Shown here in pieces: positions 4,025-32,000 of a stretch of 32,000 bases of DNA. The stretch comes from Candidatus Thorarchaeota archaeon. Its GTDB lineage: Archaea > Asgardarchaeota > Heimdallarchaeia > Hodarchaeales > Hodarchaeaceae. A program made the translations under genes and the position numbers. The DNA lies in NCBI GenBank assembly GCA_048882505.1, contig JBHLRO010000014.1, forward strand, positions 1-32,000, in the 5' to 3' direction. Position 1 is the stretch's first letter. The number at the start of each line of letters is the position of its first letter. The notes beneath the pieces are model-generated. The model ran no database searches. It was not told the DNA's origin and worked only from the letters and a program-made list of their open reading frames with translations.

Positions 4025-4426
4025 TTAATCCCCCATGTTTGGTGTGACCATCCAAAACCCACATTCCTCTTTACACGGGATTCCTCGCGTCAATAGGGCG
4101 GGATGGTCGAAATAGTGTTTCCATTCCTCTCCGATCTTTGTTACCACCTTAATACCGGCCCCGTATGAGTACATGAATGGATGTGAACTAGGTTTCCCCT
4201 TGACAAACTGGGCTTTAAGACTTTGTTTAATTGCTGCAGCCAATTCGTCCTTGATCTGTTGCCATTTGAGAAGGGACATTTTCTCGATCGTGCCATCACG
4301 GGTGAGTCTACCTCGAATATGGGGCTGGCCACAGGCGGGGTAGACAGTGAATACAATAGTTTTCTCTCTGATGCGTGTCTTAGCTAAGTTGAGGTGTTCT
4401 CCTAATCTCTCTTTGAGTGAGGTCAT
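4025..4426 (-). CDS. Hypothetical protein, 133 aa
   Basis: ATG-started ORF with globular composition and a G-rich tract (AGGGGCGG) a few nt upstream. Family not recognised. Confidence 0.55.
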   Translation of the reverse strand: MTSLKERLGEHLNLAKTRIREKTIVFTVYPACGQPHIRGRLTRDGTIEKMSLLKWQQIKDELAAAIKQSLKAQFVKGKPSSHPFMYSYGAGIKVVTKIGEEWKHYFDHPALLTRGIPCKEECGFWMVTPNMGD

Positions 4427-5005: not shown

Positions 5006-5012
5006 GAGGTGA
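5006..5012 (+). promoter_or_regulatory. Shine-Dalgarno site GAGGTGA
   Basis: Archaeal consensus SD 5 nt before ATG5018, which argues for ATG5018 over GTG5009 as the start. Confidence 0.7.
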
Positions 5013-5017
5013 GCCTT

Positions 5018-6784: not shown

Positions 6785-6821
6785 TCTTCCCTATTAATTC
6801 CCAACCAAGATTTGTGCACAC

Positions 6822-6839
6822 GTGGGGATTTTACCCCAT
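6822..6839. terminator. Weak hairpin in the 66-nt gap between two convergent genes
   Basis: TGGGG-ATTTTA-CCCCA, a 5-bp stem plus a possible G.U pair. The position fits a shared terminator, but the stem is short. Confidence 0.2.
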
Positions 6840-6850
6840 AATCCACTTGC

Positions 6851-9800
6851 TTAAATGTAAAGATTCTTGTTCTTATCACCATCAACAAATACAGGGATAA
6901 TTGCATCACCGAATCGAGACTGGAGGAAGAGGAAATTTTCTTCTACTGATAACGTCCAATCCCATATCTGTAGCCAGTTCCCATAAAACACTGAATAACG
7001 ATCAAATGTGTTAGAGAATAGTGGTCTGTCGTCTTTTTGAGCTGCAATAAGAGATCTTTTATCTGATTCTAACTCATATAACATACCTTCGCCAAAACAG
7101 GTGTTAAAAACAAATAGCTGATTTGATGTTTCCCAGACATTAACCAATTCACGTAATTCTGTATCAAGTATTAAATGCCCGTTATTCGTTACAATCCCCT
7201 GAGTTTCATTTGCAAATCCATTATTTGAAATATCAATCGCGTGACCTCCGTAATTAACTATAATAGTAGTATTCCATACATCCTTTTCAAGTACATCAAT
7301 GAGATTGACCACATTCTCTAGGGATTGATAATTCAAAAACTCATCTACCAACCAGAATACACGATACCCCTTATCCCTATAGGTTTGGATTTGAGTCAGA
7401 TAGTCGTTATAGAGAGTCCCGAGCTGGGACAGATCATTAAACTGATTAGAGGGCGTTGCGAGAACTAGAGCAATTTTGTGTTCCTCACTAATCTCGAGGT
7501 AGCTGCTTATCACTGTGTCTACATCGAATGACCCCGCAAAGCTGTTAGATTCATTTATTCGACTAGTTCGCATCAGATCATAGAAATATCTGACATTAGA
7601 GAGCAATGCAAACTGTTCATCGGTAGCTAATTTAGTAAAGTTTGTATTATATAATTCTTGGTTCACGGTTTGGCCTGCGTTATACAATGGAATATTTGAT
7701 ACCTGAGTTGAGTTGAAAACTCCACCAATAATGCTGGTTGTGTTCTGACTCATAGAACCATTGATTTGGACATTATAGGTTGAATTAATGGTGAAAGTTC
7801 CTAAAGTTGCATTGGAAGGAACCTCGGCAACGTTTAACACTTGCCATGTATCATTACCCAAGTTGTATATCATTGAATTGGTGTCGAGACTTTGACTTTG
7901 GGTACTGTTCGTAATAAAGTCAATTCCGTCAACGGAAATGTCTTCGAGATTCTCATAGTAGAAAGTATCAGTCCAAGATAGGAAGTCTGAAGCCTGCAAA
8001 CCGCTGTTTTCCCAGGTAGTATATACCCCCTGAGTACTATTTACCGAGGAAGGGGCATTCCATATCTGACCAGAAGGAGTGCCAGTCCACCGGAGATGGT
8101 CAATGTAACCATCGACATAAACTAAAGTCCCAACTTGTGCCTTAACCTCCACGGTTCCACTGTATTTGCCTACACCTTGGACGTATGAACCCATGTCAAT
8201 TGGATCCGACCAACGCCCGTAATTGGTTTCATATTTAAGAACACCGGCCTTAGTTACTTTGATAGCTATATAATGATGACCAGTTGCAAGTGGTGGATCG
8301 AAATAGTAATATGGATTTCCTGTTATTAAAACTTCTATTCCCCACCAGTATCCAGGCGTGGGGGTCTCCAGAGCTATCGCATCTCTCTGTTGTCCTTGTG
8401 CGTACACATAGAGATAATTATTCTTTAATTGTAGATACCAGTTGAGATATTTGTTGAATATTATACGCATATCTGTGTCATAGGAAATTGGTAGGAAATT
8501 TATCGATAAATAGATGTCTTCGCCACCCCAACTGAAATCAGAGACGCTACTACTCTTGACCAAGTAATCGTATAAGTGGAATCCCTTATATGATGGGTTA
8601 CTCCAGCTGGGAGTGTAGTCCCAGTCAGCATGACACCAGCCTGCATCGATAATTGTACCCCAACAGTGTAGACTGTTGGGAGAACTATAGACTGAAGAAC
8701 TCCAGCTACTAATTCCCATACCTATATTTGTACCTTCGGTCCAAGTGGTAAATTCAGATAGACTATTGAGGTGGTTTTCTCTTCCTGAAGATGGAGGAAC
8801 CACATTTACATAAGCAGGAGTTACTGAATTATGATCCGCGTAGTAGGTCGATCCTGTTCTAATCCAACGGAACTCGTAATCGGGAAATGTATCTTGCCAA
8901 GCCCACTGTTCTAATATCACTTCGACAAAATCGAAGAAGAACACGTCATAATGTCCAATCTTTCCAGTTCCGTCACCTGTCACTCCAGTAATGATATTCC
9001 CGTTATAATCACGCATGGAGTTCCAACCTCCTCCTTCTTCGACTACCCAATGTAATTTTGGTTGGTTCTGGTTATCACTCTTTTGCCAAAGCCAGCCATA
9101 GACTTGAAGGGTGTAGACCTCACCATCTCTGACGGGAGTTCCCTCACCCTGCTCTGTTGCGGTACCTGTAAACACTAGACTGTTTGGGACTCCCTGAGGA
9201 TAACCGACTGCACCCCCACCGTAATTGGTTTCAGCAATGGTTACACTCGCCAATTCCTTGAGGATATCAAAGTCAGCATTACCACCCACGGTATCGCGTA
9301 TGGTTCCCCAATTGGAATGATACGCTTGGGCAAAAATGGAGTAGTCTCCAGGGGTACCACCAGAATCTAGTTTTCCTGCAATAGTACTCCACAGAGTTGC
9401 AGGAATATCTACTTCTCCCTTTCCTCTGATTGGATTCCAAATAGGTACAAGTCCTTCCCAACATAATTCATACGGGGCTTGGTTGCAATCGGGTACATTA
9501 TCGGAATCTTCATTGATCCACACAGTTACTGATACCGATGACATCCCTTCAGGAATCCATCCAACGTCAATTACATCGTCATGCCGCGCCATATCGTCTG
9601 ACCAATAGGTACTCGTAGATCCGACTACCTGAATACTCCAATCGATAGTATCTATTCTAGTATATCCTGATTGGGCGGATTGGGCTGACTGATCTGTAAA
9701 TTCTGCCACAAAATAGCTTCCACCAACTAAACCATTAAGAAGCATTGATACGTCATCGCCATCCCATGTGGTCCAGTCCGTACTCCAACTGTCTGTAAAG

Positions 9801-12800
9801 ACGTAATTGGTGGGGTAATTATTACAGGTTGACCAGTCACCCACACAATGACCAATTCGATATTGTGAGGGATTTCCGTCATAGACGTCCCAAACTAGGG
9901 TGTAACCGAGTTGACCGAATGCAATGGTATCATCTGGTGGTGTCTGGATTACATTAGGTGCGTTATCTGTAATGCGCACTCTGATGGACGCATCCCTGGT
10001 AGGATGATCCTCGAGGTGATCGTTCGCTTGACCCGCTGAATCATAGGCGTACCAAATAAGGTTATATTCGGTGTATAGATTAGCTAAAGTTGGATCTGTG
10101 AGGGAAGCAAGGTCAAACGTGATGGGGGTTCCACTTGTCCAGAGGTTACTAGTACCGTCTACTATCCATGTTTGACTCACGTCATCAAAGATCTTATAAT
10201 AATCGGCGTCGGTATCAAAGAATGTCATAGAAAGAATATTTGATGCTCCTGCCTCGGAGTACAACGGTTCGGCTGGGGAATCCCGTCCAGTGAGTAATGG
10301 GATTGGATTAGATACCTGAACAGTGACGGTATCATCGTTGTAATACCCTCCTGTGTTGTATGCGGTGATGGTGTAAGGATACGTTCCTGCATCAAGACCA
10401 TCGACGTTCGCAGTTACGGTCTCGGGGTCTGTCCACGGAATTTGTGTCTCCGCTGGAGTACCCTCACTTTCTACTGTCACTGACCGTACTGCCATTTCAG
10501 CGGGACGATAATCATCGGTTTCGTAATGGAACATGATATAGGCTATAGGACCTCGTTCGAAGCCGTTAGATGGGATTGATTGCCATGTATCTGCACTGGA
10601 AAACGGATAAGATGGATCGTCGGGGAAACGATAACTTCCGAGTCCATTGATGTATTGGAGACTCAAAACGCCGTCGATTATGCTGGCCCCGCTTACTGGG
10701 TTCTCCGATAAAAGTGGAATATCAGTCCCCAGTGCATCATAATATTGTGCAGAGAACTGCATCTCTCGTCCAAATGGGAAGACTCCAGGGTACGAAGCAT
10801 CACTATCTTCGTAAGAGAACCGAATCACAGGTTCCTTATTGGCGTTCAGGAAATAAATCTGAAACAGTCCTGAGTGACTAATGCTAGAACCAGAGTTGAA
10901 GTTATCAGCATCATAGATAAAGTCCACATCAATACGCCAGTCTCTCGTTGTGGGGAGAGTGACTGCATGTGTGATTCCTGCGAAATTGGCACCATTATTC
11001 CACCAATCGGTACTGTACGGAGTCTCGGGGGTCAACAGATTGTCTGTGCCATCAAAATAGTTGATGACATCCTGATTGTACGCAATACTCCAGTCAATTG
11101 CAGGATCCTCCCGAGCTTGATGCCACCCGCCAACGTATGAATCGTATAAGGCCTTGGCCTCTGTAGGGGATAACGCCAGATCATAAATGCGGAATTCATC
11201 AATCGTTCCACGCATGGTATATTGATACCCACTGCGCATCTCATATCCAATCCACCCATCCGTGGCGGCGGCGGTGTCTCCATGAGGATCACCCGCAAAG
11301 ATCGGATTTGCACTGTCAGGTTGTCCGTTGATATAGAACCGCGCGTTCCGACCGCCCTCCCGATTATAGACGACTGTGACATGAGTCCATGTATCGGTGG
11401 GGATGGTTGTAGTGGATAACGCTGGTTGGTCGTCGTTTTGGAGGAGTAATCTGTTACCTGAGAGTCCAAACCACATGGTAGTACTCCATGATTTACCCCA
11501 GATGGTGCACATTCCACAACTGGAGGTGCGTTTCACCCAAGCACTAATTGAAAATACATCGGTATCCACGAAATTCGTGGCTAAGCCATCGACATATACA
11601 CGGTCTCCTGTTGCGTCATAATATAACGCAGAACCTTCATATCCACTTGTCCATGTTGGTGTCCCACCAAAATTACCGTCCAGTCCATGCCCGCTGGTGT
11701 CGTAAACGATTGATCCTGTGTTTTCATCGAGTTTGAAGTGAGCTATGGGATCTTTATCTGATAAGACCGTGGAGGGTTCATAGAGTGTCTTCCAAACAGT
11801 TGGGGTACCTTCGACCTTGACGTGGTGGAAATAATTATTTCTCGGTCTACGTCCGCGACCTGAGGTGGTAAGTCGAATATACGTGGGTGTACCTCGTTGT
11901 AATAAATCTGCCCCACCAGCAGCGGCCGTTAGATCTTGCCATACCCCACATCCCGCAACTATCGTGCCTTGGGTATTACAAACGAAGAACACCGAAATGG
12001 TCTGACCCTCTTTTTTGAGTTGGACATCTCCCTTCATATTATACCCATTGACCGCAGCCGGACTATAGATTTGAGTTTGTGTTCCGCCTGCAGTATAATA
12101 ATATGCATAAGTATAATACCGATGTGCACCCGAACTGGCAGAGCCATCACCATAGAGAAGGTACACCATTTCTTCCATAAATTCATTCAGAATGATAATT
12201 TGATGAGTTCCAGACGGACTATACGTGCCATCCACATAGGGGAAGGTATCGAGTTCAGTAGAAAATGTGAGGTGCCAATCCTCTGCTTCGCTAATCCCCA
12301 ACTCTCGAACCATTCCCGCTGCTTGATATGCAAGGGGGTCATGACCTGGACTACCATATGGTAACCAATAATCGAGGTAGTGTGGTGTTTCGGGGGTGAT
12401 GACATCATTGCCGTTGAAAATCGTTAATATCTCGGATGCGGATAAATCATCATTATAGAGGGTAGGTTCATCAATTCCTCCTCCAAAAATATAATAATCA
12501 TCAAGGCGACGACCAATATTGATTGGGTTTACTGTGTTTCGGACTAGAGTGAAAGTTCCGCCCCCGACTTGAGACGTAGCACCCGTATCTTCTACCCCAT
12601 TAATATATATCTTGATACCTTGATGTGCGTTTGTTCCTTGAGTTCCATCATAGGTAGCTGCAATGAATGACCACTCATTATCATCTATCATCACTGATGA
12701 AATTTTCCCTCGTTGACTCGCTGATCCGTATGAGTCATCGTAGAGATTAAGCTCCACACGGTGTTTGGCTGTATATGGATCGGGTGGACAATTTTCGGAC

Positions 12801-24800: not shown

Positions 24801-27800
24801 TTGACCACGCCATAGACTTCATGGGCGTCGGACATGTTATCGTTATCTGAGTCAGCATCCCACCAGAACGGTCGGTTGCACGTAGTACAGGAATAACCAG
24901 GTTCTGCGGGATGACCATAACTGTCTAGGTCTGGTGGGAGATAGTAGGTATAACTGGCATTATAGCCGCCAACGATGGATCCATTGTCGTAGGCGGGCGG
25001 TGTTAAGAGATATCCCAAGGGCCATCCTGAGAGGGTCGAATAGGTGACTTTGCCTGCATTAATAATCCCCAAACTGTCTCCTGTCAAGCTAACGGGACTA
25101 TTCAGGAAGAGATACCCCACCTGTTCTCTCAGATGAACCACAGGGGCCACCTGGTAGGTCATGTTCATGGTAATGGAGTCAATCATGACCAGCTCGGTTG
25201 TCGAGGTGTTGAGCCTGATCCGCATTTCCTCGGTGAACGTACTGGAATCACGGGAGGTTAAGGTAAAGTTATACAATGTTGGGGTAGTATCAATCGATAC
25301 GATACTTCCTGTCCAGTTCTCATACCCACTTTGGCCATGATTCGGTAGGGTTTCGTCCCAGAAATAAACACCGACATCAGCGGTATTCTGATAGGTCCAC
25401 ATGGCCACTTGGGCTGTGAAATTGATCGAAGTAACATTGGATGGTGGAAGGGAGTCATGGAAATTAAAATTCCAGAAAATGCCATCGGTGGGCCCTCGAG
25501 TGTATGCCACCATGTCACTGAAACGGACATACTGGCCGTTATGAAGGATCTTATTTTCTATCTGGAAATTATCCAGGTATGCCTCGGTACCGAGACCCTC
25601 TTCAGGAGTTTCTAAAATAAACAAGTCAGGAAGTACGATCACACCAGAACTACTGACAGAGGCTAAGGTGCCACTGGTATTCACTATATTAACCGTTAAG
25701 GTGTAGTTTCCATCGGGTTGCAGATCAATCAAGTTATAATTGAGGGTAAAGTTGTACCAGGAATTAGTGCCGATAGAGATTCCATCATAGAACAGAGTCT
25801 CATTCTCGTATAGTCCTGGCCCTCGGATGTAAACGGATCCGTTTTTATAGATATTTAATCGTACCGAATCATTTTGCCAGTACCCGCTAGCTAACCGAAG
25901 TTGAATTGATTGGTTGTCCCACCCAGTCAGACTCTGGACTGATAGACCAAAACTATAGGTCATATTATCCAACGGTTGGGGGATGGCGCCAGGGGGTAAG
26001 TGAAGGCTAGCATAAGTCGAGGAGGCGGTACTGGAATTAGCGCTATAGGTATAATACGAAACTTGGGAGGTGAGGTAATCCAGTGTCACAATGTTTGGTG
26101 AATCTACGGTGAAATTCACAGCCAAGTTGTTGATGTCGAGATAATCATCAATGCTTTGGGTGATGGTGAAGTTCTGGTAGACTGAATCCACGCTCACGAC
26201 ATATGGAGTAGACCAGTTACCATTGGAAACGTCATAGGTACTCACATTCACACTGAGGGGATTAGTACTAGTGTACCCAACTGCTTCCATCCCAAAGGCT
26301 AACTGAAGATTCATATTCTCGGCACTTGCGGGAATATTATGATTGAAGGAATCCCAGACTCCACTCGCCAGTCCTTTTGCCATGACAATTCCATATTCCT
26401 TAACCTGAACATCCGTGAATGCATCCAGGAAGATTCGTGATTTTCCTTCATAACTTGTTTGAATGGTAAGATTGGTCGGTATGGAGGTGACATTAAGCTG
26501 GGTTACCACGAAGTCGTCGTAATAGAGCGTGAGGGTATCATTGGCCATTCGTGTGTCGAATGTTAGTCTGAATGAATGCCACACATCTTGGTAAGAGGTC
26601 TGGGGAACACTGACCGACGAATTCAAACTGGAACTGGTGACATTAATGAGAGTTGGCCGAAGAGTCAATGCTAAGACATCCTCGACTGTGTTGTTGAAAC
26701 TGAATTTCACATACCCATCATGGCTCAATTCTTCCAAGTAAAAGAAGATGTCAAAGTACTGAACCTCATTAGGAGCTATGGTAGGTAAGACATATCCCAT
26801 ATTTTCAGTTCGCAATGGGACATACCGAACACTACTATCTATAGAGTCGATATAGACGTAATTTGTATTCCCATTCAATGAAAGACTGATGTTTAGACTA
26901 TTGATATCCTGATAATCGGAGATGGGGATCCCAGTCAAGGTGTAGTTGACTAATGAACCAGTTAAGGGTATGACCCCTACAGGTATCCATGTGGAACTTG
27001 ACACATCCCAGACAGATGCGTTGATCAGGCTACTTCCTGTGCCATTCCACTCGAATGCACCAATGGTGAGATCCAGCTCGATGGCTGTGGCATTACTAGG
27101 AAGATTGTAACCAAAACCACTCCACGAACCATTAATGGTACCAATGCCTTTGGCGACACCTTGGTAGAGACTTCGGGTTTCATTGAATTGGTCAATGAAG
27201 ATTACTGTTCCAGTCTGGTTATTGGTCTCAATATAGACATGTTCAGGGACAATTGGATTGGTAGAAGTTCGATTAATCATTTGATCTATGGTGAGGGCCA
27301 AGGTTGGCGTCATGGTTCGATTATTATACACTAATCTCAGATTGTGCCATGTGTCTAGAGATAAAGTGCCTAACTGTTCTGTGGTAAAACCTGCGCCTGA
27401 TAGTGTCATGTTACCAAAATCAGATATGCACAGAACCATAGAGTTTCCTGCTGTACTATTGAATCGATAGACAACAGCGTCTGATCCATTTAATGAATCT
27501 AAATAGAAGAAAAATTCGAATGTTCGATATTCATCATGGTCGAATGTAGATATTGATTTGTCAAGTGTCACTTGTGTAGTATTTCCTGTTCGTAGAATGA
27601 CCGCATCAATATCCCATGATCCCTGACTAGTATCAGAGCTGGGTATCCCATCTCTGAATCGCACATAGAAATCAGGGCTGTCAAGATAACTACTGACCGA
27701 TACATTCGACCAAGCGTTGGCATTTAAATCGGTCAGCACATTCGTCCAACCGCCGCCATACCAGACGTCTACCAAGATCTGTTCAGTATCCAATGCCCCT

Positions 27801-30800
27801 GCATAAATTGCGAGCTCTTCCAGCTCTGAATTGAAGGCACTGTTTGTAAAATGTATTTCCATATCAAGTTCGTAATTCCCTACAATTGTGGTCGTGGGCC
27901 ATTGGATGACATCGAAGCCTATGCGGTATTCTTGGCCTGAATCGGAAGTAGTTTTCGTGGCTTGATTTGCCCCCGTAATTCGAAAATTGACACTTCCACG
28001 CGGGTAGGCCGTCCCTGAACCATCAGAACTTACCACTTCTCCAAAAACACTGGAACTATTTACATTAAAGTTATTAGAAAGAGTAGTTGTAGAGACTCGT
28101 TCCTCAGTACCTCCATTATCCTCGTAATGGGCCACATGTTCCACGAACATGGAGCTAGCCGTGCTTTCTATAAGCCAAACCACGTGATATTTAAGACTGG
28201 CCCCAGAGGAGGTGCGACGTCGGATAGTGAGATCGGTAGTGCTGGTAGTTATTTCCACGTTTTCACCAGAGTCATCTAGTCCCTGATTACCGCCATTTTC
28301 ATTCCGGTATTGGGCATGGAGGAACGCCTTCGAAGCATTCAACAGGGGCGAGGCAATCGGATAGATTCCACTATTCTCTGTGGCACTACTGGTCCACGGC
28401 GAGGCACCCGCATCTGCGGAAGTAAATGCGATCCGTTGGACGGGGCGCCAGTTACTCCCCGTGAATTCTACAGTCGCCCATGAAACATACCCCGTATCTT
28501 GTGCACGACCCCGAGTCAGGAGTGGATCCCAATTTGGCCCATTAGCAACCAGTTCCGCGGTGAATTGCGCTGCGCCCCAGACAGAACGGCCAGTGTAACT
28601 AGAGGATTGGCCTGTGACAAAGATGGCCACTTGGTTGTTGTCACCGATCGTGGTAACGGTAGGACCTATGACCGTAGTCCCAGTGGTTAACCCCGCGGAT
28701 GCCTGGTGGACAATAAATTCGTTACTACCTCCTGGACTACCAATGTATTGGATAATCTCCCAATCCAACCTGTTGTCGTTGGAAGTCCCCACACGACTGA
28801 GGGTGACTGAGTTCTCGATATTCGCGGGATCAGTAATGTATACTGTAAAATCATCGATGTACTGACTGCCACCTCCCGATGTCCGACCCATTCCCGTCAG
28901 ACGACTGTTCGTTATACGGATAAACGAAGTACTGCTCGTGACCCCTGAATCGAGCAAATAATCTACACCTTCGGTTAGTGTAATGGAGGTGCTACCTGCG
29001 GGAAGTATCGATGACCCTCGAATGACTTTGAAATCATCATAGACGCCTGGAATCCCAGTTGTACTCTCTTCAATCATGGTATCATTAAGACCGTCAAGAT
29101 TTCGAAGTAAGTTAAAATCGCTGTGGTTTCCAACGTCTGCTACCCCATCCACATCTGATAACATATCGACGTAATCCTCTGGGATGCCTCCCCCAAATGA
29201 AAGTATAGCACTTTCAATCATGGCAGAGAAACTCCCTACGTAAGCTATCGTGCTATTCCGAACAATATAAGTCGGATCTGAAACATTCCAATCTGCAAAT
29301 GGATACGTTTCGAATCCTGGATCGGCCAGTAGGTTGGTATTCAACTCTTGATAATCCGCCGAGTAAACAGCCTCGGGGGAAATCCAACCGTTATTCACAC
29401 CCACGGTCGATGGACTGCCTAGCTGTGTCAGGGTTATGAGGAAGTCAGTAAGTCGAGCAGAGTAGTTACCTGCATAATAGATGCTATCATTTTGTGTAAC
29501 ATAGACCCCATCAGAAATCGTCCAATTAGTGAATGGGAGTTGTTCGAAGGTTTCATTCAACAACAAAGAATTGATATAGTTGTAGTCTGCGCGATCCAGT
29601 GTGGCATCCGAGGTATTGAACCAGTCACCCGTTCCCATTAACGAGGGACTTGAAGATTCTTGGGTGAAGGAGGGGACCTGTAGACTATCGTTGATGGAAA
29701 GCGAGTAATTCCCCCCTTGACTGTAACTACTATAACCAATGCTTGATCCTTCCAAGGCCTGACTTATCCAGGGGGATTTGTACCCTTCAAATCCTGAAAA
29801 GAGTACCACAAGACTTTCGTTAATCCAATCAGTCGATGTGAAATCGCGCACGGTAACTAGGCCAGTCTGCGTCCAGGTGTCGTTGGCCATTTGGGTATAG
29901 AAGGCAGGCGTGTTATTCATCGAGTAGATTTCCGCAATACTGCCGTCGAGTTCAGATTCCTTAATTATTGTGGAAGTGCTAGTTGCCGTTGTGTTATATT
30001 GGAGGAGCAGTGCGCCAGCTTGATCTCGCTTTGTTTGAATCTGAGTGAACACTAATGGGCGTGCGCGGCTACGATCAAAATGGACTTCGACCCAATCTTG
30101 ATACATCCACACCCCGTCAATCCGGTTAGTATGCCCCATGGTGAAGCTAGCCGCATTGAAGGCCCCAGTGGATGCAACAGCAACATACCCAATAGTTTCG
30201 ACCCTATTATGCGTAACGTGATTATCTTCCTCAATGAAGACACCTTGCATAGCTGATCGTGATACATCGTTAAATCTTACCCAGGACGGGGAGGTGCTGT
30301 TCCTAGTTTGAAGTTGGGCCACAACGACTGGTTGACTGACAAAATTAGTGTTGAAGGCGTGATCATAGGCCCCCGTTCCGTTGTGAGTGTAAGATCCTAC
30401 CTCTATATCTAATCCCGCTACAGAGTAATTTCCAGGTTTAAAGGCCACCCATTCGACGAGCTCATCAAATGCGGGGGCTGAGGCATTGATACCTTCGATT
30501 TTCATCTCAAAACTTGCGGCTGTCACATTTGTGATGGCGACATATTCTCCTTGACTATCTTTGTCTGCTGCGGACTTCTTCTTAATCGAGGCCAAAATAA
30601 CTGGAATGTAGGCCAAGGTATAGGGAAAGATCACCCGCAACCAGGTATCATAGGGCACCATATCCACGGCGCCAGCGGCGCCGAAAATTTCGTCTGAACT
30701 GGGGGTAAACACTCCGTTTATTGAGAATTCAGGTTTGCCATCGAAATTGGTATCATGCCCGAATCGGATATAGCCAGTAATCTCCTCATAATCGGTTACT

Positions 30801-31999
30801 CCATCTTTATCGAAGTCGATAATGGACAGGGGATCGAGGAGGACATCAATATCTCCATCAGCATCAATATCGCTGGCGTAATATTCGGGAGTCTGACTTC
30901 GATAATCATCTTTCTCACCGTCCATGTCAGTGTCGTAGTAGTCGTAGGTGTGATCGAATTCATCACGCACCGTAAGACCATCGCCATCCCAGTCAGCATA
31001 CTTCCAATAGAGCCAAATATCACTTTCATTTGAGGATTGGGAACCAATGACTTTCACATCATACCTGTCTTTGGGGTCTAATCCGAAGTGGAGTTCATAT
31101 ATGTCCCATATTCCGTCCCTGTCCGTATCGGGGTTGTTGGGATCCGTAGGGTCAAATTCCGTCTGGGGGCCATAGACCACGGCAGCGGCATCAATTGAGG
31201 TTTTGACCATGACATCGGCTTTATCGATAGTGCGGTTGGGGTACTGTTGGTTGAGGAGCGCTTTGGGTAACCCCATCACCTCTTCTACGTCCCAGAGACC
31301 GTCCGAATCGCTGTCTTTCTTGAGCGGGTTCGTGCTTGAATATGAAATAACGTCTAAGACGGTACCCCAGACTGGTCCGTTCTCATCCCAGTCAACAATC
31401 ACATCACGATCCCCGAAAAAGGATCCATAATATTCCTCGATATTGATCAGGGTGTCATTATTCTTATCGACGAACGCAAAATACTCCTCGTAGTCGGTCA
31501 AGCCATCCTCGTCGGAATCAGGGACAAAGGGTGAGGCGGTGCGCCAACAAGTGGGACATGTGCTCTTATTAGCAGGAACCCCAAACGTGGGATGAGTGCC
31601 ATTGTGCCAACCGTACGCAATGCCCGACGTACTATTGGTATCCCATTCATCATAGAAGACTCCGATTTCATATCCGTCAGGTAATTGATCAAAATCCGTA
31701 TCAGGATTGAGAGGATCGGTCAGATACTTGTATTTTTCATCAAAGTCGCCAATAAGATCTCCATCGGTATCGTAAATCCCAGGATGAGTCTCGTACATAA
31801 CCACAATATCGTAGTAGGTGGTGACACCTTCGGTGATCATTCCGATAGTAGAGGGCGCCGTATTTAGACTTAGATTGGCGACAAGATGACCATCCAATGA
31901 CAAAATCACTAGATTCTCGTATCCAGGAATGATATTGTCTTTCATCTTGAACAGGGTCATGTCATACCAGGTGTTGTACGTGAGATTGATCGGAAGGTC
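6851..31999 (-). CDS. Giant (>=8,382 aa, 5' truncated) Ca-binding lectin/Ig-repeat surface protein with a C-terminal clan CD cysteine peptidase domain
   Basis: A single stop-free frame runs from TAA (6851-6853) to the window edge. Upstream of the track's ATG31960 the frame continues (DLPINLTYNTWYD-MTLFK), and that M is not followed by a signal peptide. D/N/T/S/Y/W-rich and Lys-poor, with many N-x-S/T sequons. Confidence 0.93.
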   Translation of the reverse strand, partial: DLPINLTYNTWYDMTLFKMKDNIIPGYENLVILSLDGHLVANLSLNTAPSTIGMITEGVTTYYDIVVMYETHPGIYDTDGDLIGDFDEKYKYLTDPLNPDTDFDQLPDGYEIGVFYDEWDTNSTSGIAYGWHNGTHPTFGVPANKSTCPTCWRTASPFVPDSDEDGLTDYEEYFAFVDKNNDTLINIEEYYGSFFGDRDVIVDWDENGPVWGTVLDVISYSSTNPLKKDSDSDGLWDVEEVMGLPKALLNQQYPNRTIDKADVMVKTSIDAAAVVYGPQTEFDPTDPNNPDTDRDGIWDIYELHFGLDPKDRYDVKVIGSQSSNESDIWLYWKYADWDGDGLTVRDEFDHTYDYYDTDMDGEKDDYRSQTPEYYASDIDADGDIDVLLDPLSIIDFDKDGVTDYEEITGYIRFGHDTNFDGKPEFSINGVFTPSSDEIFGAAGAVDMVPYDTWLRVIFPYTLAYIPVILASIKKKSAADKDSQGEYVAITNVTAASFEMKIEGINASAPAFDELVEWVAFKPGNYSVAGLDIEVGSYTHNGTGAYDHAFNTNFVSQPVVVAQLQTRNSTSPSWVRFNDVSRSAMQGVFIEEDNHVTHNRVETIGYVAVASTGAFNAASFTMGHTNRIDGVWMYQDWVEVHFDRSRARPLVFTQIQTKRDQAGALLLQYNTTATSTSTIIKESELDGSIAEIYSMNNTPAFYTQMANDTWTQTGLVTVRDFTSTDWINESLVVLFSGFEGYKSPWISQALEGSSIGYSSYSQGGNYSLSINDSLQVPSFTQESSSPSLMGTGDWFNTSDATLDRADYNYINSLLLNETFEQLPFTNWTISDGVYVTQNDSIYYAGNYSARLTDFLITLTQLGSPSTVGVNNGWISPEAVYSADYQELNTNLLADPGFETYPFADWNVSDPTYIVRNSTIAYVGSFSAMIESAILSFGGGIPEDYVDMLSDVDGVADVGNHSDFNLLRNLDGLNDTMIEESTTGIPGVYDDFKVIRGSSILPAGSTSITLTEGVDYLLDSGVTSSTSFIRITNSRLTGMGRTSGGGSQYIDDFTVYITDPANIENSVTLSRVGTSNDNRLDWEIIQYIGSPGGSNEFIVHQASAGLTTGTTVIGPTVTTIGDNNQVAIFVTGQSSSYTGRSVWGAAQFTAELVANGPNWDPLLTRGRAQDTGYVSWATVEFTGSNWRPVQRIAFTSADAGASPWTSSATENSGIYPIASPLLNASKAFLHAQYRNENGGNQGLDDSGENVEITTSTTDLTIRRRTSSGASLKYHVVWLIESTASSMFVEHVAHYEDNGGTEERVSTTTLSNNFNVNSSSVFGEVVSSDGSGTAYPRGSVNFRITGANQATKTTSDSGQEYRIGFDVIQWPTTTIVGNYELDMEIHFTNSAFNSELEELAIYAGALDTEQILVDVWYGGGWTNVLTDLNANAWSNVSVSSYLDSPDFYVRFRDGIPSSDTSQGSWDIDAVILRTGNTTQVTLDKSISTFDHDEYRTFEFFFYLDSLNGSDAVVYRFNSTAGNSMVLCISDFGNMTLSGAGFTTEQLGTLSLDTWHNLRLVYNNRTMTPTLALTIDQMINRTSTNPIVPEHVYIETNNQTGTVIFIDQFNETRSLYQGVAKGIGTINGSWSGFGYNLPSNATAIELDLTIGAFEWNGTGSSLINASVWDVSSSTWIPVGVIPLTGSLVNYTLTGIPISDYQDINSLNISLSLNGNTNYVYIDSIDSSVRYVPLRTENMGYVLPTIAPNEVQYFDIFFYLEELSHDGYVKFSFNNTVEDVLALTLRPTLINVTSSSLNSSVSVPQTSYQDVWHSFRLTFDTRMANDTLTLYYDDFVVTQLNVTSIPTNLTIQTSYEGKSRIFLDAFTDVQVKEYGIVMAKGLASGVWDSFNHNIPASAENMNLQLAFGMEAVGYTSTNPLSVNVSTYDVSNGNWSTPYVVSVDSVYQNFTITQSIDDYLDINNLAVNFTVDSPNIVTLDYLTSQVSYYTYSANSSTASSTYASLHLPPGAIPQPLDNMTYSFGLSVQSLTGWDNQSIQLRLASGYWQNDSVRLNIYKNGSVYIRGPGLYENETLFYDGISIGTNSWYNFTLNYNLIDLQPDGNYTLTVNIVNTSGTLASVSSSGVIVLPDLFILETPEEGLGTEAYLDNFQIENKILHNGQYVRFSDMVAYTRGPTDGIFWNFNFHDSLPPSNVTSINFTAQVAMWTYQNTADVGVYFWDETLPNHGQSGYENWTGSIVSIDTTPTLYNFTLTSRDSSTFTEEMRIRLNTSTTELVMIDSITMNMTYQVAPVVHLREQVGYLFLNSPVSLTGDSLGIINAGKVTYSTLSGWPLGYLLTPPAYDNGSIVGGYNASYTYYLPPDLDSYGHPAEPGYSCTTCNRPFWWDADSDNDNMSDAHEVYGVVNIPGTDYLDFDGITGHTWDVGQLQNQTGPIEGIKTIYMPAVGDVTNPRDMDTDSDFLTDFEEIFFSNGTIRPDTGIGSWSSPLKSDTDGDSLLDVRERIWNTDNSKSDTDDDGLSDASEVSTPYIRLEDNPFPDDWRALVYAYSDNQSFGIDPRGVNPYTNLTDTYWTCGGCPANVRVTDPTDADTDSEWFDDTNGNGIFDVGETYTDEQPDGEYNGDHINDGEELNIFLTSPLMYDTDNDLLSDFKEIGLLKADGTVRGNAEYVNESFSGGIVGERTVSWPWYWAGLKGKDYQQQIWLDAWNDQAIRGSVHSDSYVELPFNSSIIITPWWDYTLTTYQYPVTISWEYRVDQDTFNNGTGYEVALIHTDDSPTLLGTYSFDSTSIDWVTNSSSYTWANNSWTGRLDDKWSPPIKAIRFSFEADIHYNSFEAEPIYAVQKIVVSARGDWSVGVDVLATIDERFLPVYSDLHLRDSDKDGLYDGREFWEGTNPLHFDTDQDFLDDYTEANGMYIFQMPQYNTTNYGELNKTTYLGLPNSIGLFEQTFNDARDWLLTNNETFVYWTNEVDPNDTVTTFTVYHTEEVVIEEPRTDPLNRDSDFDGLLDGEEIGHTVLTYQEWYLEPSFFDTMNKSSYLYWAIPNLGFNKTSGDAYTYLDDLETQDTVYWTSAVDPGNNVTTFDVYVMEKVPVWRDPQNKYMTWNWNGSTGAWVDFNNNGYIGEVVFNSGGTMYSLFDSQWMYNDTYYYGLDTYLPFGGVAHSISESVIYLEGNPQDDYVYWVKEFILGNETVSDFFHVMRTTRLSEGDIDPFGRIRDNQYEYNATVDDYLFDIDGSTYAFNHSFVKTNPWKTDSDDDAFLLYLYEPFPNGRLAGAVNLTAFGADVYVPSGSYINTAQYYYYLDWLNDPANTYQVDPMLMGFAPSLSMQVTMANFFWIERNTDLGERTGYGRNELSSRSYQDIKFIAPWWNDWLPEYHANYVEGTNSWMNENFDSNALANHKPTQELEIFGVDLNDVPVIWGTNWDIIQSDATVADILNTSPKVMWESVYSDVELWPVEYRYGTEGGFVTWDGEFTHPDPEYGTLNGSWNALSRYRLDYKAIHDEYPFPYDPDPTFQDKQEAVDYKFIKGTRPSGMISYALSPNYDNDFLTDGITMFGEKNPANTYYYSGSTYTWTATKSWKCYDMSFPYTDCYAGMQDDPHLGQIYTDKMTGVNDAITWLETAGNENESHVFFGWLVPVNSEYGWTYQYKVTRPMGTLGVEVTAYTPAFWSKPDLIREFGVDVAYEWNMATAPDSYEVVEIIGWEPFWTYVGRSPNLLFPRFNSPWYYSETDVYNWFQSNPNEEYLFMFDDIYWFYQVHVKKYRSYYSTASDSFGWESFLADIDHYSTKIDPDGDTIRDGFPSPLYSLTEGTHTIFYRDIPTKENYALDTDNDGFENAIDSNSDGDAFTDTEEASLMLPSLNTDLLDPLDPYIDVWDNVIDPFHLTSPIDTLDIQTESDKLVDYTDDYHDGLGGSRIDGLIVSNSSGWTSRDNSIIDGNELDRIYIDANANFVFDLGDLLVSENTTLVDGCTSPQSCPDPVFVQNKFDTVMNTSVTPWQTYNLIAEIEDNDGITQGLFPIIIDKEDIMITYNDTANLHFTATVGEVGRIEYQMVDPENYSETITHNVTDVDYEVFYNNTWNQLIDTPPSHTSRNLTFETVSSNPAFGGNVLPQGTHYYRLNITENIFYKNTTIHTNSSGGFHSTLSEAIYGPDLSEFYLSLSPLQLTFTIDSSTSSFGDGLESGNAEETGFVIDITDSTGADLHRFNAAGNIDAFDLSFMRADMVIEKWNQTSSSWYSIDLANPLVNYTDFITTEYIGSVPDFLYPAYTPNLGMSDLPNTEQEAIDFLRNNSQFSNVYWVSDVVGSNYEVQRTWNEGLPDYNNTSSTYQILSRGSTSDWNSNPETMDKFMDGTYFDMATDPYVEISPYNTTDNKTDYGPHSTDWGVQQPRGSCGSHPSNDMQPPCTNYPSARSLVLTEMYLPYTSIVKDLSLYATHSSIGLGTVIRGVIYELNGNQLDLIATTDDIFLNAWYFTPEWFQLNFNPYVTLQGDKDYWVGFQIPDDASDFLHVEYAMPTPDNTTYHNNGTTIFGTLDPSLGYDPDWTITPSVVNPAHIPNSHERVLTIKLGIDSYGVEPTSHSLPIVGQYFSDNPSAIEVNWIYRTASDPTAPNLYYFLNTPMTPNVNTDTVIWLQWWNQLSANYPNQRAILYDGKPLVLDEGHFRINFRLDPTSDASQFYDTAYNSSWTEFDVGPPSLQLRLSLQDLVFSYNQSSPAVEGMVSAGTLPQYNNLFYTIWVDEDNEGDQDPGELVLADNVTANQVGRYDLPSLSWDTFDRYTSAVNYTLMVNGTKSDVINPAYASAIFTIEKGLAIFSYTTQNYGDVIQSQGKTVTLEAYLWDVTNVSDPVPLDGESVTFEYKHQDNSTWNWIGSAITDSTGKATIVDWNIPSGLPLGYYEIKVALSSSPRYRDRTRTTDNFRVVVAETAVISMSSISIPWSDPMPSSNLQVTNLVDNSGVKVHAWIDLDGDQVYDSGSELLFVNDTSDAAGYVSIPGKSWAEISGPTWFHNYTNTWLLYISYERSGIFNQTTVRTFTIANETSVVRGYNADGTAYEYKDQDYWWFEGATIPLFGHVFEDDTPIGSVPVQGIEIHFNYSIDGGTTWYRIPGTCSTNSTGQCGVNFFWDDSFWSPSPSDRWVKIKTIFNGTNIDQYYDGGTFALDSFLLRDREKMNLTASAITTEWSHDAPETTIVDGVSVTDMRDNSNVNVFAWVDINDNDAYDSGTEPIIIDNLLTTGVTNGTLDITPVSWASYLYQYFTDMGNYTLIFNASRGIYVEPKTIEVPFNITVETFNIWTPGVNTSYGGDVPACLGCEYVTSLTDPQNVNIFAWVDFIQNGVFNSGNDLLVINNAITNSTGHVDRPLLTWNPPTDLNWYYTQYGPGTHDFIINASRDRFLQTNITTFDWIFRHDRPKFLSPPPDIEFPDYIEFTTGHSIMWNVTDPYDSGSYVVEYDYVDAVTSWVAWDSGTWVYDTPITVSVDGLSPTGTYTFRINVTDQQAYTTSDLVNVTVYNPLPSIEIQDYTTPYIHLVNGTSINWTVRDVNSIQSGGSYQIYYKNSTDIQWKPWLNDPSGSGTWITDGVASDLISVVIDGLNYTMTPYYFMANVTDQSGDFNTSSSVQIDVTNPLATVVEKSAPPGYEYLEFTTGHIIEWDATDQNSPHADAGSYQAYLKVGPSGSWGEWHPADGSGTGTWNSTGAAFTIAVTIDGLSASVDPYYFRLNVTDESGDNTGSAEISILVYNDPPVLSDNPNIPVYYQGQDNYINLTWTVNDPYDLGTWRIQWLDGYWKDLTGYNTTGTWNDTLGTSDTIYASIPNTHLEGNPIGRLCQFRLKVLDAFGSEVFDGVDVTSYNNPPSGISPDPHMDYYQNYSPLTLNWTISDYNSTYDVHDSGTWQVQHYINDAWEDIPGESGTWLDGTGSPQATIVLSTLVGNNTGISYIYRLVVADSAVPGNQVTSDNTTVTVYNYPPSISGFPTTYGGTYYEDDGGDLTLDFTVNDYQGLPSQPQVGDSGGWFSEYRIDGGTWAPWTGTGSSGSWFVTDGAGDLVNFVVLQSDLKGSAAGRLYEFRVNVSDSASPANSVLSNVYDVTVYNPIPTTTSPPDIPIYVEDSTGNIIAWTVSDQYDQTGTYDVLWKVLGAPDTSYVIWSTYDDITWTHDVEFQVDIDGLVGGSYTFLMNATDDALPVNFVSDPVDVIVEAGPNVVQNPDIPNDLLQYNVGETGNQITWVITEGTGDPADYYVIERDGWALRPEEITQTMALVWEDDMSDVSLWTQQNDHPYYENAGNENWHDMTSYNAPIDSENLVLQLLLNEGSGNSAADSSHARHHGTIYGPNYSRTTSYRPEAGNSLWLGGYTDKNYIYIPDSSDFTPGTNGMTWMAWVYPTYMGCNHHVISKQNYPSPMEWEFKLKSENCPPDPYTAKHRVELNLYDDSYGSASQRGKISSVMIDDNEWSFIAATYDGTQGTNAHQGIKIYINGVEDTGATSQVGGGTFTLVRNTVNPINIGRRLDDYYIFGGGIDEPTLYNDDLSASEILTIFNGNDVITPETPHYLDYWLPYGSPGHDPLAYQAAGMVRELGISEAEDWHLTFSTELDTFPYVDGTYSPSGTHQIIILNEFMEEMVYLLYGDGSASSGAHRYYTYAYYYTAGGTQTQIYSPAAVNGYNMKGDVQLKKEGQTISVFFVCNTQGTIVAGCGVWQDLTAAAGGADLLQRGTPTYIRLTTSGRGRRPRNNYFHHVKVEGTPTVWKTLYEPSTVLSDKDPIAHFKLDENTGSIVYDTSGHGLDGNFGGTPTWTSGYEGSALYYDATGDRVYVDGLATNFVDTDVFSISAWVKRTSSCGMCTIWGKSWSTTMWFGLSGNRLLLQNDDQPALSTTTIPTDTWTHVTVVYNREGGRNARFYINGQPDSANPIFAGDPHGDTAAATDGWIGYEMRSGYQYTMRGTIDEFRIYDLALSPTEAKALYDSYVGGWHQAREDPAIDWSIAYNQDVINYFDGTDNLLTPETPYSTDWWNNGANFAGITHAVTLPTTRDWRIDVDFIYDADNFNSGSSISHSGLFQIYFLNANKEPVIRFSYEDSDASYPGVFPFGREMQFSAQYYDALGTDIPLLSENPVSGASIIDGVLSLQYINGLGSYRFPDDPSYPFSSADTWQSIPSNGFERGPIAYIMFHYETDDYRPAEMAVRSVTVESEGTPAETQIPWTDPETVTANVDGLDAGTYPYTITAYNTGGYYNDDTVTVQVSNPIPLLTGRDSPAEPLYSEAGASNILSMTFFDTDADYYKIFDDVSQTWIVDGTSNLWTSGTPITFDLASLTDPTLANLYTEYNLIWYAYDSAGQANDHLEDHPTRDASIRVRITDNAPNVIQTPPDDTIAFGQLGYTLVWDVYDGNPSQYRIGHCVGDWSTCNNYPTNYVFTDSWSTDWTTWDGDDVSMLLNGLVGGSYFVAEFTDQSAQSAQSGYTRIDTIDWSIQVVGSTSTYWSDDMARHDDVIDVGWIPEGMSSVSVTVWINEDSDNVPDCNQAPYELCWEGLVPIWNPIRGKGEVDIPATLWSTIAGKLDSGGTPGDYSIFAQAYHSNWGTIRDTVGGNADFDILKELASVTIAETNYGGGAVGYPQGVPNSLVFTGTATEQGEGTPVRDGEVYTLQVYGWLWQKSDNQNQPKLHWVVEEGGGWNSMRDYNGNIITGVTGDGTGKIGHYDVFFFDFVEVILEQWAWQDTFPDYEFRWIRTGSTYYADHNSVTPAYVNVVPPSSGRENHLNSLSEFTTWTEGTNIGMGISSWSSSVYSSPNSLHCWGTIIDAGWCHADWDYTPSWSNPSYKGFHLYDYLVKSSSVSDFSWGGEDIYLSINFLPISYDTDMRIIFNKYLNWYLQLKNNYLYVYAQGQQRDAIALETPTPGYWWGIEVLITGNPYYYFDPPLATGHHYIAIKVTKAGVLKYETNYGRWSDPIDMGSYVQGVGKYSGTVEVKAQVGTLVYVDGYIDHLRWTGTPSGQIWNAPSSVNSTQGVYTTWENSGLQASDFLSWTDTFYYENLEDISVDGIDFITNSTQSQSLDTNSMIYNLGNDTWQVLNVAEVPSNATLGTFTINSTYNVQINGSMSQNTTSIIGGVFNSTQVSNIPLYNAGQTVNQELYNTNFTKLATDEQFALLSNVRYFYDLMRTSRINESNSFAGSFDVDTVISSYLEISEEHKIALVLATPSNQFNDLSQLGTLYNDYLTQIQTYRDKGYRVFWLVDEFLNYQSLENVVNLIDVLEKDVWNTTIIVNYGGHAIDISNNGFANETQGIVTNNGHLILDTELRELVNVWETSNQLFVFNTCFGEGMLYELESDKRSLIAAQKDDRPLFSNTFDRYSVFYGNWLQIWDWTLSVEENFLFLQSRFGDAIIPVFVDGDKNKNLYI
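6854..7480 (-). other. Caspase/legumain-like (clan CD; C13/C14-like) peptidase domain at the C-terminus of the giant protein
   Basis: KIALV first strand; IIVNYGGH (His codon 7241-7243); LFVFNTCFGEGM (Cys codon 7097-7099). His-Cys spacing is 48 aa, each after a hydrophobic strand. Ends with SLIAA..., SVEENF and P.FVDG, as in prokaryotic caspase-family proteins. Confidence 0.72.
9670..10310 (-). repeat. Two Ig-like repeats (distal stalk)
   Basis: NPIP...D.DADYYKI...WTSGTPITF...YNL...YDSAG and NAP..PPD...VWDVYDGNPSQYRI...W....LNGL..G match the repeat pattern at 13430-15795. Confidence 0.65.
11140..11750 (-). other. LamG/concanavalin-A-like domain
   Basis: AHFKLDENTGSIVYDTSG...FSISAWVK...WTHVTVVY...RFYINGQ...GTIDEFRIYDLALSPTEAKALY is a classic LamG_3 signature. 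Confidence 0.9.
12415..13120 (-). other. LamG/concanavalin-A-like domain
   Basis: LVLQLLLNEGSGNSAADSS...MTWMAWVYP...WSFIAATYDG...KIYINGV...GGIDEPTLYNDDLSASEI. Confidence 0.9.
13430..15795 (-). repeat. Seven tandem Ig-like repeats (~105-125 aa), followed by an eighth, split repeat
   Basis: Recurring N.PP...P...Y.(EFTTG)..I.W.V.D....G.(Y/W)...W....SGTW.....I.V.IDGL....Y.F..NVTD......S..V.V.VY. Diverged at the DNA level. Confidence 0.8.
15990..20190 (-). repeat. Dispersed beta-sandwich domains carrying an SdrD-B-like W.D.N.N..(Y/Q)D.GE Ca loop
   Basis: YIDANANFVFDLGD (~20170), WVDEDNEGDQDPGE (~17790), WIDLDGDQVYDSGSE (~17110), WVDINDNDAYDSGTE (~16370), WVDFIQNGVFNSGND (~16015). A sixth, WINEDSDNVPD, lies at ~9505. 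Confidence 0.6.
20450..24860 (-). repeat. TSP3-like DxDxDG Ca-binding repeats (second to fourth blocks)
   Basis: Examples: DSDNDNMSDAHE, DTDSDFLTDFEE, SPLKSDTDGDSLLD, DTDDDGLSDASE, DTDNDLLSDFKE, DSDKDGLYDGRE.GTNPLHFDTDQD, TDPLNRDSDFDGLLDGEE, DTDNDGFEN. Confidence 0.85.
25148..27550 (-). repeat. Three tandem ~250-290-aa units, each a ConA-like domain plus a jelly-roll domain
   Basis: Aligned anchors: FFFYLDSL/IFFYLEEL/FGLSVQSL; DTWHNLRLVY/DVWHSFRLTF/NSWYNFTLNY; IFIDQF/IFLDAF/AYLDNF; AKG..GSW..NLP/AKG..GVW..NIP/TRG..GIFW..SLP; YIDSI/TLDYL/MIDSI. Confidence 0.65.
29210..29570 (-). repeat. Two diverged copies of a ~40-aa segment resembling a CBM4/9 N-terminus
   Basis: LLNETFEQLPFTNWTISDGVYVTQNDSIYYAGNYSARL versus LLADPGFETYPFADWNVSDPTYIVRNSTIAYVGSFSAMI. 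Confidence 0.6.
30020..30650 (-). repeat. Three H-type-lectin-like repeats
   Basis: W.RVIFP......PVILASI...ITNVTAASF...ELVEWVAF.PG; F...F..QPVVVAQLQT.N....WVR..DV....EED...H..ETIGYVA; W..V.F....RPLVFTQIQT (third copy truncated). Confidence 0.6.
30780..31775 (-). repeat. TSP3-like DxDxDG Ca-binding repeats (first block, about 9-11 loops)
   Basis: DTDGDLIGDFDE, TDPLNPDTDFDQLPDGYE, DSDEDGLTDYEE, TNPLKKDSDSDGLWDVEE, TDPNNPDTDRDGIWD, DWDGDGL, DTDMDG, DIDADG, DFDKDGVTDYEE. Confidence 0.88.
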
Positions 32000-32000
32000 G

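Follow-up and report, generated by a model that had tools for sequence, protein, structure and literature searches.

The question raised by this locus is what can be encoded by a single open reading frame (ORF) that spans positions 6851 to 31999 of the minus strand in a window of 32,000 nucleotides and is still open at the window's last base. The window, by which we mean the whole stretch of DNA analyzed, is the first 32 kb (C14:1-32000) of the 98,153-bp contig JBHLRO010000014.1, here C14, from the draft genome of an Asgard archaeon. We found the ORF to be the last 57% of a gene of 14,724 codons, and we propose, with a probability of about 60%, that the product of this gene is an anchored, glycosylated cell-surface fiber for adhesion or contact. 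Judged from its sequence, the protein is most likely Sec-exported and tethered to the membrane by a conserved N-terminal signal-anchor, beyond which residues 27 to ~2,225 would form a membrane-proximal, family-specific module with a concanavalin A (ConA)-like jelly-roll (~620-940). This module would be followed, on to residue ~5,100, by an orphan core kept free of N-glycans, then by two glycine-rich hydrophobic segments (5,121-5,177 and 5,590-5,680) and by ~9,000 further residues of a predicted Ca-binding array rich in N-glycosylation sequons (N-x-S/T) and projecting outward, with TSP3-type loops, three 255-residue units, nine immunoglobulin (Ig)-like repeats and two LamG domains. The distal end would be a conserved His/Cys alpha/beta domain resembling a clan-CD cysteine peptidase. 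Adhesion to glycans or to the surfaces of other cells or particles would be the likely function, possibly with proteolysis at the distal tip.

Within the window the ORF comprises 8,382 sense codons and a TAA stop (6851-6853), and encodes residues 6,343-14,724; the rest of the gene continues to C14:51025. The first-pass annotation of the window had described an uninterrupted ORF of at least 8,382 codons that starts upstream of the window, and had advised extending the contig to find the start codon and signal peptide. The contig bears out both the open frame and its upstream start: downstream of an in-frame TAA at C14:51041-51043 the frame is open for 14,729 codons, its first ATG lies 19 kb, or 6,342 codons, beyond the window (C14:51025), and the ATG is followed by a predicted signal-anchor. 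The complete gene is thus complement(C14:6851..51025), 14,724 codons or ~44 kb. Its ATG is in register with the starts of three homologues and is preceded at ~65-72 nt by a TATAAATA box (TATA box), and the product translated from it begins MTLEKSKLYYISLALFFVVGAFATAY... The protein has a calculated mass of 1,652 kDa (1.65 MDa) and is acidic (isoelectric point, pI, 4.3). Pfam domains that score above their cut-offs, two Laminin_G_3 and one PKD-like, cover <4% of it. Sequence searches of the PDB with all four quarters of the protein gave no match (one chance match had an E value of 0.16), and residues 6,343-11,342 had no match among 5.8 billion protein clusters in the length band of 4.6-14.7 kaa (thousand amino acids).

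That a frame of this length is an artefact, either of chimeric assembly or of several genes or a pseudogene being read as one ORF, is extremely unlikely. At the base composition of the gene, a frame of this length would stay open by chance with a probability of ~10^-369. When compared with itself the gene shows zero non-self DNA matches (E<=1e-5), and exact repeats in it reach 15 nt at most; in the absence of DNA repeats that could be mis-joined, repeat-driven mis-assembly is therefore excluded. Contigs from four public runs were compared over window positions 12,001-32,000, by which 20 kb of the 44-kb gene were checked. A different pipeline, applied to what is probably the source sample, gave a single co-linear 53,240-bp contig at a depth of 29.7, which has 0 differences from C14 across these 20 kb and by its offsets should reach ~C14:64,300, past the start of the gene. 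Two sister samples contained identical short contigs, and a run from another study contained 29 fragments that are 90-99% identical to the giant gene. Because 34 of the 40 listed differences in these fragments are at third codon positions of the same frame and the sole indel is an in-frame 3-nt deletion, the fragments indicate a diverged orthologue and purifying selection on the gene. Homologues exist for both ends of the protein, as described below, and C14 begins with the same 77 nt with which contig C18 ends, an overlap from which we take C14 to be chromosomal. On the other side stand the facts that the genome is a metagenome bin (4.32 Mb in 83 contigs, 94.6% complete) with an estimated contamination of 3.7%, and that the full-length support comes solely from the sample probably behind the assembly. 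The earlier opinion that the length is unlikely to reflect an assembly artefact of repeat expansion is consistent with both the lack of DNA repeats and the co-linear contig of the second assembler.

The N-terminus of the protein consists of MTLEKSK and a 19-residue hydrophobic stretch that ends in an AxA-type motif (ATA). This stretch recurs in the paralogues of the N-terminal module (N-module), and its identity among homologues is 53-68%, where that of the whole proteins is 34-40%; because it is more conserved than the proteins as a whole, it suggests a retained signal-anchor. A different outcome would follow if the signal peptide were cut at ATA|Y and the protein shed into a hydrated, Ca-cross-linked glycoprotein layer, as a released matrix or coat of the halomucin kind. 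The AxA-type motif at the close of the hydrophobic stretch is what such cleavage would use, the protein is very acidic and rich in sequons and Ca motifs, and it has no C-terminal anchor or sorting signal. However, conservation of the hydrophobic stretch above that of the rest of the protein would be unusual for a cleaved signal peptide, and the protein is not mucin-like, as it has neither low-complexity Ser/Thr/Pro repeats nor DNA repeats. We therefore consider a released coat unlikely.

The family to which the N-module belongs is small. Two other genes of this genome, on contigs C44 (1,728 residues) and C38 (1,697 residues), encode intact paralogues of the N-terminal 1,600 residues with 35-48% identity, and contig C66 carries an additional broken copy. 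An exhaustive search of 1.84 billion representative proteins with an N-module profile returned ten matches: two were the paralogues, seven were short fragments or merely local, and the tenth was a protein of 3,139 residues from an unrelated metagenome (P0008), which is 34% identical over residues 1-2,225 of the giant and is its sole long foreign homologue. At the P0008 locus (ENA ERZ23499022 scaffold_698, 10001-19420) the adjacent genes encode inositol-1-phosphate synthase, UbiA and CTP-transferase-type lipid proteins and a leucine-rich repeat (LRR) protein. Among the 5.8 billion protein clusters the N-module matched nothing beyond the C44 paralogue of its own genome; the N-module profile, applied as a pattern scan to 185,579 species genomes (a method of low sensitivity), found no relative; and no N-module paralogue was found in 21 congeneric genomes. 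In the ESM Atlas the best score of the N-module was 0.76 and the core was without a usable match. Residues 1,621-4,609 of the core had no match in 399 other genomes of the phylum, and the rest of the giant gave only short domain-level matches in 40 related genomes, of which 21 are of the same genus and three of those are single-contig.

Structure prediction provided a clue to one part of the N-module. The AlphaFold alignments held 3-5 sequences, and the mean predicted local distance difference test score (pLDDT) was 43.7 for a C-terminal model and 46.7 for an N-module model (predicted template modeling score 0.58), a caveat that applies to the following comparison. When residues 560-960 of the N-module model were searched against 48,161 PDB chains with VIA-align, 50/50 best matches were ConA-like lectins/glucanases, with Z scores of 10-14.3 over 160-200 aligned residues, where the usual background of such searches is Z 7-8. 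The top match was the lectin domain of a sialidase (5mqs_A, Z 14.3, root-mean-square deviation 2.9, 165 aligned), and further matches included GH16 enzymes, legume lectins and the thrombospondin C-terminal domain. The model thus places a ConA-like jelly-roll at approximately residues 620-940.

The distribution of sequons along the protein offers a guide to which of its parts may carry glycans. Sequons were counted and compared with the mirror motif S/T-x-N and with the expectation from composition. In residues 1-1,620 there are 8 sequons (mirror 9, expected 10), and the N-module is likewise sequon-neutral in all four homologues. Residues 1,621-5,100, in contrast, contain 2 sequons (mirror 14) where 23 are expected, and 0/2,000 shuffles of this region had fewer than 10. 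Residues 5,101-12,500 contain 188, an approximately twofold enrichment (expected 88) with the mirror motif at expectation (90); for comparison, the genome-wide ratio of observed to expected sequons is 1.15 (ORFs of 300-1,500 residues). The count falls again to 2 in residues 12,501-14,000 (mirror 16, expected 14) and is 12 in residues 14,001-14,724 (mirror 10, expected 10). The homologous core of P0008, which is 34% identical to the giant, has 0 sequons against ~10 expected. The second half of P0008 is entirely sequon-free. Because the depletion falls below the neutral expectation, we infer that residues 1,621-5,100 are exposed to the glycosylation machinery yet must stay unglycosylated. The first-pass annotation had pictured a glycosylated filament; this fits the enriched region from 5,101 to 12,500, but a uniform filament of this kind is wrong for the first third of the protein, a non-repetitive, sequon-avoiding orphan region.

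The switch from sequon desert to enrichment coincides with the two glycine-rich hydrophobic segments, and for this reason we considered whether the first 5,100 residues might be cytoplasmic. This location is disfavored: the conserved signal-anchor points outward, and a cytoplasmic region would be predicted to have neutral sequon counts, as in the N-module, and not a tenfold depletion.

Distal to the switch, the protein contains a varied array of motifs and domains, for which window coordinates, all on the minus strand, are given below together with residue numbers. The first-pass annotation had pictured the filament as Ca-rigidified, and in keeping with this there are 11 strict TSP3-type acidic motifs (DxDxDGxxDxxE loops) against 0.03 in shuffles, arranged in two clusters and predicted to bind Ca; the corresponding Pfam family, TSP3_bac, scored 19.9 bits, below its cut-off of 25. 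The first cluster starts beyond the window, at residue 5,888, and the part of it that falls in the window (30776..31999) has motifs at residues 6,503, 6,571, 6,633 and 6,737; the second cluster is at 22982..24853 (residues 8,725-9,348). Between the clusters, a match to the H-type lectin family (PF09458, 30440..30637, residues 6,797-6,862) also scored below its cut-off (18.6 bits, cut-off 24). A transmembrane reading of a hydrophobic segment followed by KKK (residues 6,796-6,814) was set aside, since the segment lies inside the H-type lectin match and is probably a beta-strand. Elsewhere in the Pfam search, PITM was a further sub-threshold match.

Repeats in this protein are few and old, as judged by self-comparison, and the first ~6,300 residues have no internal repeat. 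Three diverged units of ~255 residues were identified by self-comparison and iterated hidden Markov model (HMM) search at 25154..27601 (residues 7,809-8,624), and contain the motif DTWHNLRL. This motif had earlier been paired with NTWYDMTL as a ConA strand. The pair does exist, at residues 6351 and 7891, but profile support for a ConA/LamG assignment is lacking: the three units and the segment at 6,351 gave hhalign probabilities <1.1% against the protein's own LamG_3 profile, and an E value of 0.33 with Pfam Laminin_G_2. The iterated HMM search also identified eight Ig-like repeats of ~105 residues at 13178..15877 (residues 11,717-12,616), inside which a K319L-like PKD match (PF22352, residues 11,808-11,845) scored 31-33 bits against a cut-off of 27, and a ninth at 9728..10027 (residues 13,667-13,766), after the LamG cassette; the nine are mutually 25-47% identical. 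The cassette itself (residues ~12,680-13,542) is a sequon-poor tandem of two Laminin_G_3 domains, each with a following beta domain. The domains, both PF13385, are at 12428..12958 (residues 12,690-12,866; E 7.1e-17, 62.4 bits) and 11159..11599 (residues 13,143-13,289; E 6.9e-19, 68.9 bits), and both are well over the cut-off of 27.6 bits. With these two domains, the ConA-like fold of the N-module (Z 14.3) and the sub-threshold H-type lectin match, the earlier prediction of several lectin-like domains is in good agreement.

The distal tail provides a concrete enzymatic candidate. Alpha and beta elements alternate along the last ~230 residues, and the domain formed by residues 14,492-14,724 (6854..7552) has invariant G-H and N-x-C-F-x-E-G motifs. 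These are contained in the sequences IIVNYGGHA and LFVFNTCFGEG, 48 residues apart, in which first His14595 (codon 7241-7243) and then Cys14643 (codon 7097-7099) each follow a hydrophobic strand. Both residues are invariant in the giant and in two related copies; the last 425 residues recur solely on contig C56 of the same genome and at the end of a contig-truncated ORF in the congener G012. By ESM features the tail scored 0.92 to Peptidase_C14/C13 clusters, and ten/ten best family-bearing matches were in one clan. When aligned by hhalign with a genuine Peptidase_C14 protein encoded on C14, the tail motifs coincide with SGHG and DACHSG, at a probability of only 6.5% (E 0.0056). No Pfam match was found for the tail at E<=0.01, the C-terminal profile had no PDB sequence match, and the C-terminal 349 residues had no relatives among the 5.8 billion clusters. 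In the C-terminal model pLDDT was <50 over the tail domain, and the fold search matched only generic beta-sandwiches via the first 145 residues (Z <=6.5). We regard a clan-CD-like (caspase C14/legumain C13) cysteine peptidase as no more than a good lead for the tail.

The copy on C56 is part of a segmental duplication (C56:1055-6675, equivalent to window 5009-11197), which comprises the last 1,446 residues of the giant and the convergent gene that lies downstream of it. This neighbor (5009..6784, plus strand) encodes a right-handed beta-helix/NosD-like protein of 591 residues with a C-terminal membrane anchor, and the version beside the C56 fragment is 33% identical to it. The duplicated C-terminal module, residues 13,277-14,724, is at 6854..11197 on the minus strand of the window; its C56 counterpart is 5'-truncated: it opens within a LamG domain and lacks both a start and a signal peptide. 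The giant and C56 are 75-97% identical along residues 13,284-13,660, after which identity drops stepwise to 13-50%, with a background otherwise of ~35%, a pattern in keeping with a tract of gene conversion in an old duplicate.

This arrangement recalls polymorphic contact-dependent effectors, in which case the fiber would display an exchangeable C-terminal module to neighboring cells or deliver it to them, the caspase-like part being the active one; C56 would be an orphan recombination cassette, and the sequon-free core would act with the glycine-rich hydrophobic segments in insertion into, or translocation across, a membrane. Several features are in keeping with such an effector: the truncated C56 copy retains its own diverged copy of the neighbor gene, the fall in identity gives a mosaic of the recombination type, the sequon avoidance of the core is kept in its 34%-identical homologue as would befit a part that must stay unglycosylated, and the gene is in a non-syntenic island and is missing from 20/21 congeneric genomes. 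Conversely, no known toxin domain was recognized, and the downstream gene is convergent and encodes the beta-helix membrane protein, where a small co-directional immunity gene would be expected. In addition, the fall in identity is stepwise with no conserved demarcation motif, the His/Cys domain is conserved and not swapped in all three copies, and the last 724 residues are outside the sequon-free regions. We consider an effector function, both in the swappable tail and in the membrane-inserting core that it would entail, to be rather doubtful.

A related and still less probable idea, which we would call a long shot, is that the protein is a contact machine in which the N-anchored, glycosylated lectin/Ig array reaches a partner, and the glycan-free core, the glycine-rich segments and the caspase-like tip insert into or act on its envelope. 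If true, it would be a lineage-specific, recombining device for partner capture or conflict in the archaeal group closest to eukaryotes.

We return to the anchored adhesion fiber, which we favor, in order to state what weighs against it. Expression and glycosylation of the protein are predictions, and >96% of its sequence is without a recognizable family, so that the view of a fiber or adhesin is based on a minority of domains. Both AlphaFold models have a mean pLDDT <50. In the N-terminal third, sequons are avoided, repeats are lacking and the composition is closer to that of cytoplasmic proteins (more Lys/Arg and Leu), none of which a plain stalk would explain. It may be that the glycine-rich hydrophobic segments are true membrane helices, which would alter the topology, and the signal-anchor, here taken as retained, might be cleaved. 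For the peptidase assignment, neither sequence nor structure gave a significant match (Pfam, PDB, the 5.8 billion clusters, hhalign and fold search). Finally, partner capture or cell-cell contact as the role of the fiber is purely conjectural.

The genome context of the gene bears on its origin. The genome carries an archaeal small subunit (SSU) rRNA, and the RNase Z-like gene (rnz, window 351-1487) is 75% identical to its counterpart in a 'Candidatus Heimdallarchaeota' metagenome-assembled genome (MAG) and 55% identical to that in a 'Candidatus Hodarchaeota' MAG; by these sequence markers the host is a Heimdallarchaeia-type Asgard archaeon. In relatives the gene order is that of the genes at the end of C18, rnz, an AsnS-like gene (asnS-like) and the genes at the start of contig C30, and the giant gene is absent from the corresponding position in the three relatives compared. 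Because asnS-like is followed in the relatives by the C30-start genes, and because C14:2349-2447 is an 80%-identical copy of C30:1-99, the giant gene is placed in a non-syntenic island that starts near C14:2450. The gene has a GC content of 44.7% against 41.1% for the genome, and usage is atypical in its first 1,620 codons, with an r of 0.46 for relative synonymous codon usage (RSCU) where the median of long ORFs is 0.78. Sequence comparison suggests that the island and the left arm were acquired by recombination from a more distant donor. In the closest named MAG the flanks of the island (C18-end and C30-start) are 86-93% identical, rnz 75% and asnS-like 70%.

Giant genes in variable regions of Heimdall-group archaea have been described before as cargo of aloposons, the transposon-like elements of Ca. 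Heimdallarchaeum, which have tandem pairs of genes for proteins of 3,000-6,000 residues (Otus and Ephialtes), a tRNA site downstream and a ParA/MinD-type ATPase among four upstream genes (PMC8813620). Cargo of an aloposon-type element could account for the break in conserved synteny, the deviant GC content, the atypical codon usage of the N-module and the patchiness of the family, with paralogues in this genome and none in 21 congeners. The hallmarks of the aloposons, the tandem pair, the tRNA site and the upstream ParA-like gene, are nevertheless not present at the giant locus. Searches of the window and of C14:50,001-70,000 (20 kb upstream of the gene) gave no tRNA gene, Pfam scans of the C14 ORFs recognized no integrase, no ParA/MinD and no viral gene, the locus has one giant gene with neighbors of ordinary size and no tandem 3-6 kaa pair, and the far end of the island was not found. 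An aloposon origin is accordingly very unlikely.

Other genes of the island and genome are recorded here for completeness. At the island edge, between the AsnS-like gene and the beta-helix gene, are two minus-strand ORFs of 329 and 133 residues (window 2505-3494 and 4025-4426) with no Pfam match, and the DNA of C14:2496-3000 has an 85%-identical copy on contig C35. Divergently upstream of the giant gene, C14:53627-57448 (plus strand) encodes a PQQ beta-propeller/Big-domain protein of 1,273 residues, which has a 53% identical paralogue on contig C23 and a 49-53% identical homologue that adjoins the giant-like C-terminal fragment in G012; the two gene types may be recurrent partners. The genuine Peptidase_C14 caspase domain mentioned above (E 2e-13) is in a stand-alone protein of 589 residues (C14:87719-89488, plus strand), downstream of which are genes for an LVIVD-repeat protein and an Rce1-like CAAX protease. 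The genome has a second giant ORF, of 10,069 codons (C10:95218-125424, plus strand), which is sequon-rich (215 against 155 expected). Kinship of the C10 ORF with the 14,724-residue giant was considered and none was found by BLASTP.

As a class, giant proteins of Asgard archaea are already on record, and the protein described here is one further defined example and not a new principle. Archaea have few proteins >10,000 residues, most of them in Asgard archaea (West-Roberts et al. 2023, bioRxiv 10.1101/2023.11.21.568195), and Asgard genomes contain many unrelated giant genes (Wu et al. 2022, PMC8813620, Extended Data Fig. 7). The giant resembles those surveyed (>10,000 residues) in phylum, size class and scarcity of recognized domains, and neither report describes it or its family; in the literature compared we also found no published description of its sequon mosaic or its caspase-like tail. 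It is among the largest archaeal genes for which there is a complete reading from start to stop, independent assembly support and evidence of purifying selection, and its host lineage is the Asgard branch nearest eukaryotes, in which partner contact is a central open question. As >96% of the protein was unmatched in all sequence and structure libraries tried, it also stands for a sizeable part of protein space that is still unexplored.

Among archaeal proteins of at least 5,000 residues, whose function is not understood, Laminin_G_3 is the most frequent domain (PMC11573180). In the giant, the LamG domains are only ~2% of the length and are near the C-terminus, not the N-terminus. The huge archaeal proteins with this domain, and halomucin, are likewise very large, acidic and secreted, as the giant is predicted to be. 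Halomucin of Haloquadratum walsbyi has 9,159 residues, and the first-pass annotation had noted that the ORF of the window is close to that size; the complete giant exceeds it by ~60%. No halomucin homology was apparent for residues 6,343-11,342 in the 4.6-14.7 kaa band of the cluster search, halomucin itself not having been compared directly.

Bacterial giant adhesins such as SiiE and those of the LapA/Bap type are highly repetitive and depend on type I secretion or sortase anchoring. The giant would share with them an anchor, a long Ig-like/Ca-binding array and lectin-type domains, and like them probably acts as a long non-enzymatic surface fiber; unlike them, it is nearly non-repetitive, has a 5,000-residue orphan N-terminal third and is predicted to be N-glycosylated. 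The conserved alternation of its sequon-avoiding and sequon-enriched segments offers a testable map of the parts that must stay glycan-free.

For the distal tail the relevant comparison is with clan CD peptidases and with large toxins such as MARTX, which carry autoprocessing cysteine peptidase domains (CPD). The tail shares with them a His and then a Cys after hydrophobic strands and an alternation of alpha and beta elements, and its placement at the end of a giant, putatively secreted protein recalls the autoprocessing domains, although it has no significant profile or structure match to clan CD. In its conserved His/Cys pair it supplies one concrete enzymatic hypothesis. Within its known kind, the giant is unusually large, almost non-repetitive and nearly family-less, with a conserved sequon mosaic and a caspase-like tail.

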